A stretch of DNA of 64,000 bases from a virus (lineage: Duplodnaviria; Caudoviricetes), in the IMG/VR virus record IMGVR_UViG_3300048854_000113, positions 6,999 through 70,998 of that record. The stretch is one strand, 5' to 3'. A model generated the notes under the pieces. The model did no database searches. It saw only the letters and a list, made by a program, of their open reading frames with translations, and was not told where the DNA came from. The position numbers and the translations under genes were made by a program. Below, piece by piece: positions 39,262-39,939 of this stretch. Positions within the stretch are counted from its first letter, which is position 1. Each line of letters begins with the position of its first letter.

Positions 39262-39939
39262 ATGTCTATACACAAACGAATCAAAGACTTGCGCGAAAAG
39301 CGAGGCCTCTCAATGCAGGCGTTGGCGAAACTCGTCGGCGTGTCTGCATGGCAAACAATTCAGCAATGGGAACGGGAAGACGGAACGGCGCCGAAGAGGG
39401 AGCGTTTAAAAGCAGTCGCTGATGCGCTCCAAACGACCGACGCGTATCTGATGTTTGGCACGCCAGAAGAAGCGCCCGCACCTAGAAGCAAAGTGGACAC
39501 GAGCCTGACGAAGGCGGAACAGAAGGCTGCAAATTCGAAACCGATACTGATCGTGGGCGTGGCGCAGCTGAGCGATAACGGTCAATGGGCGGATCTTGAA
39601 CATCCTGAAGGTTTTGACGACGGCTCTGTCGAATTGCTGAGTCGCGATGCAAACGCGTACGCATTGAAATGCGAGGGCGACTTGATGCGACCAAGAATTC
39701 AATCGGGTGAGTTTGTTGTAATCGAGCCGAATCAATCCGTTGAGGCGGGTGATGACGTTCTAGTGGTGTCGAAAGATGGTCGCGTGATGGTGAAGCGCTT
39801 CCTCTATAAAGCTCATGGTCGGGCACACATGATCTCGGTGAACGACGCGCACGCAACTCTCTCGTTCAAAAGTGACGAAATCGAGAAGATGCATTTCGTA
39901 CGGGCGATCTGCCGGCCGAGCTCCTGGCGACCTGAATAA
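39262..39939 (+). CDS. cI: CI repressor (XRE HTH plus S24 domain), apparently non-cleavable
   Basis: IKDLREKRGLSMQALAKLVGVSAWQTIQQWE HTH; S24 fold with GDLM in place of GDSM; Lys178 present. Confidence 0.9.
   Translation: MSIHKRIKDLREKRGLSMQALAKLVGVSAWQTIQQWEREDGTAPKRERLKAVADALQTTDAYLMFGTPEEAPAPRSKVDTSLTKAEQKAANSKPILIVGVAQLSDNGQWADLEHPEGFDDGSVELLSRDANAYALKCEGDLMRPRIQSGEFVVIEPNQSVEAGDDVLVVSKDGRVMVKRFLYKAHGRAHMISVNDAHATLSFKSDEIEKMHFVRAICRPSSWRPE

Follow-up and report, generated by a model that had tools for sequence, protein, structure and literature searches.

The immunity region and its operators

A cI-type immunity repressor gene lies on the plus strand of the phage DNA analyzed here, a stretch of 64,000 nucleotides (bases 6999-70998 of the 70,998-bp IMG/VR record IMGVR_UViG_3300048854_000113) referred to below as the window. 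This gene and a divergent cro-like gene share an operator region, and a further operator pair is located at OL, as expected of a lambdoid immunity module. The features of the module are as follows.

38868-39176, minus strand: cro-like gene (YdaS/Cro-type HTH) starting from an internal ATG, divergent from cI; Pfam YdaS_toxin, 3.6e-12; PHROG 35, transcriptional repressor
39191-39225, no strand: OR, two adjoining 17-bp operator-like sites (TRCTRG-N5-CYAGYA type) in the cro-cI intergenic region, a direct repeat 18 nt apart
39226-39254, plus strand: PRM-like promoter (GTGACA, 17 nt, TACGAT) found by a consensus scan
39262-39939, plus strand: cI-type immunity repressor gene, 225 aa; HTH_3 N-terminal domain, short linker, and S24-fold C-terminal domain
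40667-40701, no strand: OL, operator-like site pair upstream of the leftward early operon
54468-54502, no strand: third operator-like pair, ahead of a DUF5131 gene, in a segment that repeats OL/PL almost exactly

The TRCTRG-N5-CYAGYA palindrome occurs exactly three times in the window, at 39191-39207 (OR), 40685-40701 (OL), and 54486-54502, and each copy adjoins a second, weaker site. The PRM-like promoter implies, in our reading, a transcription start at about the cI ATG and a leaderless mRNA, as in lambda PRM. A preliminary description of this DNA had taken the operators and promoters to be intact. This stands for the operators, since the cro-cI intergenic region is identical at 110 of 111 positions to that of the sister phage described below and paired sites are present at OR, OL, and the third locus, while the promoters are predicted only. 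The segment at 54468-54510 is an almost exact duplicate of 40667-40709 (OL/PL), 13.8 kb downstream of it and before the DUF5131 (Gp37/Gp68) gene, which suggests that a second operon there may be under direct CI control.

Beyond the cro-like gene, the minus strand carries the replication, nin, terminase, and structural genes. Downstream of cI, the plus strand carries an early-left operon with an exonuclease, RecT, and an AlpA-type xis-like gene, and a tyrosine integrase gene is also found on this side. Directly 3' of cI, at the position of lambda rexAB, a plus-strand gene (39945-40448) encodes a membrane protein with a UPF0547 zinc ribbon, which may be a lysogen-expressed exclusion gene or a moron. 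Two HNH endonuclease genes (35227-35928 and 29542-29898) are present on the minus strand, one of them flanked by the replication genes and by a DNA methylase/helicase pair; in place of that pair the sister phage has a single 884-aa ORF. A phage-borne tRNA-Met (CAT) gene (27369-27444, minus strand) is located between the start of the late region and the nin region.

Domain architecture of the repressor

Pfam assigns residues 7-62 of the CI protein to HTH_3 and residues 117-207 to Peptidase_S24, the latter with a score of 53.9 bits against a cut-off of 23.3, and the N-terminal domain is similar to P22 C2. An AlphaFold2 model of CI made from 60 homologs was confident (pLDDT 87.6), and its top structural matches were lambda repressor and LexA, RecA-filament complexes of both among them, with a match probability of 1.00 to the C-terminal domains of lambda CI and LexA. 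Both Pfam and the structure match therefore place the S24 (LexA/signal-peptidase-like) beta fold in the C-terminal domain. The window CI shares with lambda CI, P22 C2, 434 CI, and LexA the two-domain plan of HTH and S24 and the dyad Lys, and with lambda also the divergent cI and cro genes with common operators, a probable leaderless cI transcript, and paired operators at OR and OL.

Homologs of this repressor come from Paraburkholderia, Caballeronia, and their relatives. In most of them (320-360 aa), the first HTH is followed by another HTH-like module (Phage_CI_repr type) ahead of the S24 domain; this module is absent from the window CI and from a few relatives of ~221 aa. Because two of these short, single-HTH forms (P0013 and P0032, 221 aa) keep both the Gly and the Ser of the cleavage machinery, the short form is a normal architecture.

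Loss of the nucleophile and of the cleavage-site glycine

The roles of the dyad and cleavage-site residues of lambda CI and LexA have been described (PMC9926225), and LexA S119A and G85D are non-cleavable forms according to the titles of their structures (1jhh and 1jhf). The corresponding positions in the window CI are as follows.

39571-39573, plus strand: Ser104 (AGC), in AQLSDNG, at the cleavage-site Gly position (lambda Gly112, LexA Gly85)
39682-39684, plus strand: Leu141 (TTG), GDLM in place of GDSM, at the position of the S24 nucleophile Ser; aligns with lambda Ser149
39793-39795, plus strand: Lys178 (AAG), in VMVKRF, the general-base Lys of the former Ser-Lys dyad, kept; aligns with lambda Lys192

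Among 237 aligned homologs, the column of Leu141 holds Ser in 225, that of Ser104 Gly in 205, and that of Lys178 Lys in 220, and both Gly104 and Ser141 are invariant among the 50 closest relatives of the window CI. When the family profile was compared with lambda repressor (3bdn), q-l-G fell on lambda Q-A111-G112, GDSM on GNSM (Ser149), and the Lys on Lys192. The window CI thus has Leu103-Ser104 where lambda has Ala111-Gly112; the nucleophile Ser of the G-[DNE]-S-M motif and the scissile (Ala/Cys)-Gly bond are both missing, and the general-base Lys is in place. These comparisons bear out what the preliminary description had claimed from the letters alone, namely that GDLM puts Leu at the nucleophile position, that Ser104 stands at the scissile Gly, that Lys178 is kept, and that residues 104 to 141 and 141 to 178 are each 37 residues apart. 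The claim that each change is one base from the active codon was also right, the sister codons being TCG (Ser) and GGC (Gly), and the S24 alignment of the relatives puts the nucleophile column at residue 141 and not at another Ser. The chance of hitting both positions even without selection is ~4% by our estimate (26 differences in 133 C-terminal residues).

The predicted P1 residue (residue 103 of the window CI) is Leu throughout the family (Q-L-G; Leu in 187 aligned sequences), compared with the canonical Ala or Cys, so that cleavage of the intact relatives is itself predicted only.

Given the loss of these residues and the established biochemistry, RecA-stimulated cleavage of the window CI seems implausible. 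Compared with lambda CI and LexA, it has Leu for the nucleophile Ser, Ser for the P1' Gly, and the family Leu rather than Ala or Cys at P1, and it would be equivalent to the laboratory Ind- alleles LexA S119A and G85D, but as a natural protein with both defects. Because the Ser nucleophile and the scissile Gly both fail, the window CI is, as far as can be judged from its sequence, a non-peptidase S24 homolog and not a working member of the self-cleaving S24 repressors. We consider it very probable that it is a natural Ind- repressor, with an S24 domain that is predicted to be a pseudo-protease.

Comparison with the sister phage

The closest relative of the window phage is IMGVR_UViG_3300048854_000134 (G001; loci L018 and L051-L055), which is collinear with the window record over almost its full length and encodes the CI protein P0003. 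The first 66 CI residues are identical at 64 positions and the C-terminal domains are 80% identical. With a near-identical OR and N-terminal domain, the two phages should be homoimmune. The sister CI keeps both Gly and Ser (AQLG, GDSM), whereas the window CI has lost both. In addition, the sister CI has a 93-aa linker insert resembling a second HTH (P0003 residues 117-209, L018:6349-6627), which is absent from the window CI.

Pairwise dN/dS between the window and sister genes was 0.03 in the N-terminal domain, 0.13 in residues 93-135, and 0.05 in residues 136-225. In the C-terminal domain, the window CI has 19 private departures from the family consensus, against 4 in the sister CI (p = 0.0026). 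Of the 19, 13 lie within residues 96-130, and five (G104S, V116E, G119D, P126L, and S141L) affect positions that are invariant in the relatives.

The nucleotide differences between the two were polarized with seven outgroup loci, leaving 30 sites, mostly saturated synonymous ones, unpolarized. In the C-terminal domain, the window lineage has accumulated 22 non-synonymous and 17 synonymous changes and the sister lineage 3 and 13, respectively; the synonymous changes are even between the two lineages (p = 0.58), while the non-synonymous ones are uneven (p = 1.6e-4). The window lineage has 14 non-synonymous and 5 synonymous changes in the cleavage-site region (residues 93-135) and 8 and 12 in the core (residues 136-225), compared with 2 and 4, and 1 and 9, in the sister lineage. 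When these polarized counts are divided by the site counts of the pairwise dN/dS, omega is ~0.84 in the cleavage-site region and ~0.19 in the core of the window lineage, and ~0.15 and ~0.03 in those of the sister lineage.

39538-39666, plus strand: cleavage-site region, residues 93-135; almost neutral evolution in the window lineage (omega ~0.84)

This is the signature expected if self-cleavage had been lost some time ago, in which case the cleavage-site strand would drift while the core stays constrained. By analogy with lambda, the core has presumably been retained for dimerization and cooperative binding. The core is somewhat relaxed too (omega ~0.19 versus ~0.03 in the sister), which could mean partial decay. 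The earlier proposal of a RecA-independent repressor gains support here, in that the loss is genuine and confined to this lineage, and the cleavage-site region has since drifted almost neutrally.

Inactive S24 sites in the repressor family

In 216 other homologs with all anchor columns aligned, both Ser and Gly are present in 203. The remaining 13 (about 6%) lack Gly only (8), Ser only (1), or both (4; P0199, P0233, P0239, and P0245), and loss of Gly and loss of Ser are associated (Fisher p = 2.7e-5). All of the inactive variants tested pass the Pfam S24 threshold except P0076, and P0199 and P0233 adjoin divergent cro-like genes in immunity modules. P0199, P0233, P0239, P0245, and P0224 resemble the window CI in combining an HTH with a Peptidase_S24 domain that is without Ser, Gly, or Lys or more than one of these, but they have different replacement residues and are 30-50% identical to it. 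In a clade consisting of P0068 and P0071-P0078 (202-233 aa; HTH and degenerate S24), Met or Ala takes the place of the Lys and the alignment contains no cleavage strand, and this clade looks like an older, fixed non-peptidase branch.

Catalytically dead CI homologs, as predicted from these residues, are a recurrent minority, of which the window CI is one more independent case. MEROPS has a category of S24 non-peptidase homologs. Our literature search returned no specific account of a full-length CI repressor whose S24 site is dead.

State of the phage genome

The preliminary description had left room for a prophage locked in its host. The window record and that of the sister phage (~70-kb records) share a single map in circularly permuted form: the window record matches G001 position 43704 at its end and position 43897 at its start, and the ends of G001 fall inside continuous sequence of the window record. 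The window contig is ~190 nt short of a closed circle, the missing part being the 3' two-thirds of the LexA-boxed gene described below. The integrase gene, the putative attP, and this LexA-boxed gene are contiguous with the tail-fiber end of the genome, and host DNA is absent.

62252-63508, minus strand: tyrosine integrase (PHROG 1 integrase, 1.1e-43), adjoining the putative attP and the LexA-boxed gene

Such a layout, permuted and free of host DNA, indicates an excised or replicative form. The head, tail, and terminase genes match those of the sister in length and have 95-100% amino-acid identity, the int, xis-like, and recombination genes are intact, and there is no sign of decay outside cI. 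A locked prophage is disfavored by the excised circular form in which the genome was assembled and by its intact structural genes, and the phage is probably not locked. No att core was shared with a Caballeronia prophage junction, and the window contig ends without terminal overlap. As a whole, the record is best explained as an intact ~71-kb temperate lambdoid phage of a Paraburkholderia- or Caballeronia-like host.

A LexA-boxed small gene as a candidate route of induction

For a repressor of this kind, the preliminary description had supposed that induction needs an antirepressor or a protease. LexA-controlled antirepressors act on the non-cleavable repressors of the Gifsy phages (GfoR/GtgR/GfhR), of 186 (CI/Tum), and of N15 (CB/AntC) (PMC3121763). 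Pfam ANT, Bro-N, and Peptidase_M78 had no match in the whole 71-kb record, and PHROG and Pfam scans of about 60 ORFs yielded no antirepressor annotation. The protease route is not borne out, in that no ImmA/IrrE-type protease was found in the 71-kb record. The antirepressor route fared better, as a LexA-boxed small gene adjoining attP is a plausible candidate, although it matches no known antirepressor family.

63849-63868, plus strand: LexA (SOS) box of perfect consensus (TACTGT-N8-ACAGTA), 18 nt upstream of a small ORFan
63887-64000, plus strand: first 38 codons of the small ORFan, cut by the contig end; candidate SOS-induced antirepressor

The 38-aa fragment is 100% identical to the sister phage, in which the open frame encodes 97 aa and the LexA box and ORF are kept adjoining int (L051:1465-1794, with the full gene at 1501-1794). 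The 97-aa protein has only three homologs among 5.8 billion proteins. Each of these is preceded by a LexA box, and one sits beside a tRNA remnant at the extreme end of a Caballeronia prophage. The ORFan and its homologs seem to form a family of small proteins under SOS control. The 97-aa protein matched no family in Pfam or PHROG, its hits in the ESM Atlas were unnamed clusters only, and its AlphaFold2 model is helical and of low confidence (pLDDT 66). Viral contigs were also searched for exact copies of the LexA box with its flank; there were none, as the sister has a one-base difference immediately following the box. Other CTGT-N8-ACAG sites (window positions 6269 and 17365; record position 3490) were set aside, being inside coding sequence and not full consensus boxes. 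In Caballeronia sp. dw_19 there are two S24 matches, neither within range of the prophage with the small-gene homolog, but as the contigs could not be matched to each other, no weight is placed on this.

The window phage resembles Gifsy, 186, and N15 in its repressor, which on its sequence is without a functional autocleavage motif, and in a LexA-boxed small gene that is placed at one end of the prophage map, distant from the immunity region. It differs from the Gifsy phages, whose repressors are ~136 aa long and have no S24 domain (PMC3121763), in that its CI has 225 aa and a full S24 domain; it is thus not one of the short repressors (about 136-150 aa) without S24 that go with antirepressor systems, and its candidate antirepressor is without relation to any known family. 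By analogy with these three systems, we tentatively suggest that the LexA-boxed 97-aa gene might encode an SOS-induced antirepressor, although we would not call this probable. It may instead provide an additional SOS input that was already in place, or be an SOS-regulated moron. Since the predicted-cleavable sister phage carries the same LexA-boxed gene, the gene does not specifically make up for lost CI cleavage. A minus-strand gene in the nin region (30431-30982) encodes an HslV/proteasome-beta-like peptidase (PHROG 1040, 2.3e-26) without an adjoining HslU-like ATPase, and as a route of induction this peptidase would be a remote alternative.

Proposed model and alternative explanations

In the model that we propose, Leu at the nucleophile position and Ser at the P1' Gly position would prevent RecA-stimulated self-cleavage of CI, while its N-terminal HTH would still bind the paired operators at OR, at OL, and at the duplicated OL-like site. 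The S24 core would have remained under purifying selection for dimerization and cooperative binding, and the cleavage-site strand, being no longer needed, would drift almost neutrally. Lysogeny would thus be uncoupled from direct RecA sensing. Any DNA damage response that is kept would have to act in trans, with the LexA-boxed gene as the best candidate for it; otherwise switching would be spontaneous or driven by non-SOS signals. A more specific history, in which SOS signals reached the ancestor in two ways, through CI self-cleavage and through a LexA-controlled antirepressor of a new family, and the window lineage dropped the first while keeping S24 as an oligomerization scaffold, is rather unlikely in our estimation.

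The same substitutions could mean that cI is decaying as a whole, the phage being in effect a clear-plaque or virulent derivative or a degenerating element rather than a stable Ind- lysogen. The core indeed has a non-synonymous excess as well (8 non-synonymous and 12 synonymous changes versus 1 and 9 in the sister), the invariant positions V116E, G119D, and P126L are hit, the protein is short of the sister linker and second HTH by a 93-aa gap, and the genome was recovered in a non-integrated, circular form. A gene in general decay would hardly, however, have an N-terminal domain with dN/dS of 0.03 and only 2 of 66 residues different, a core omega still at ~0.19, and a confident model (pLDDT 87.6) beside an operator region conserved at 110 of 111 positions; the ~221-aa relatives P0013 and P0032 with Gly and Ser intact take away the argument from length, and the int, xis-like, and recombination genes are not damaged. 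We consider decay of the whole gene improbable. Still less credit goes to neofunctionalization, by which the substitutions in the cleavage-site region would have been positively selected to create a surface for a new ligand, partner, or sensor function, such as the docking of another inducer or protease. In its favor are the 14 non-synonymous changes, several altering charge (V116E and G119D), that lie in 43 codons with 5 synonymous ones, and the HslV-like peptidase gene in the nin region. Against it, omega is ~0.84 and not above 1, no partner has been identified, and the other dead variants have unrelated replacements at both positions, as relaxation and not convergence predicts.

Two further explanations have almost no weight with us. 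That both substitutions are a sequencing or assembly artefact, or a minority variant in the metagenome consensus, comes to mind because only one contig underlies both the record and the single-member protein cluster, and read errors had been named in the preliminary description as a way for its claim to fail. This is not borne out, in that the two changes are among 22 non-synonymous and 17 synonymous polarized, lineage-specific changes in the domain, the reading frame is uninterrupted, and the neighboring genes agree in length with those of the sister. It is just as hard to believe that CI still cleaves itself by another nucleophile or at another bond. Lys178 is kept and Cys137 lies four residues before the former Ser, but this Cys is conserved family-wide beside the Ser and so is not compensatory, and there is no Ser or Thr next to residue 141. 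The Gly column is lost too and the cleavage-site strand has drifted, and in LexA, S119A and G85D are the standard non-cleavable mutants.

Implications

The two phages would form a homoimmune pair of a cleavable and a non-cleavable repressor, that is, a natural double Ind- allele with a sister for comparison, in which cleavability is predicted. By analogy, the selection pattern suggests that an S24 domain can persist as a non-catalytic oligomerization module. Because ~6% of the family is without Gly, Ser, or both and the losses are correlated, labels such as "S24 peptidase" or "SOS-inducible repressor" given by domain match alone over-predict inducibility. If the LexA-boxed gene encodes an antirepressor, the pair would document a shift between two known SOS induction strategies. 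If, moreover, the ancestor did have two SOS inputs, the gene would represent a new antirepressor family of Burkholderiaceae prophages, and the window lineage would have passed from a cleavable CI to an indirect circuit of the Gifsy type.
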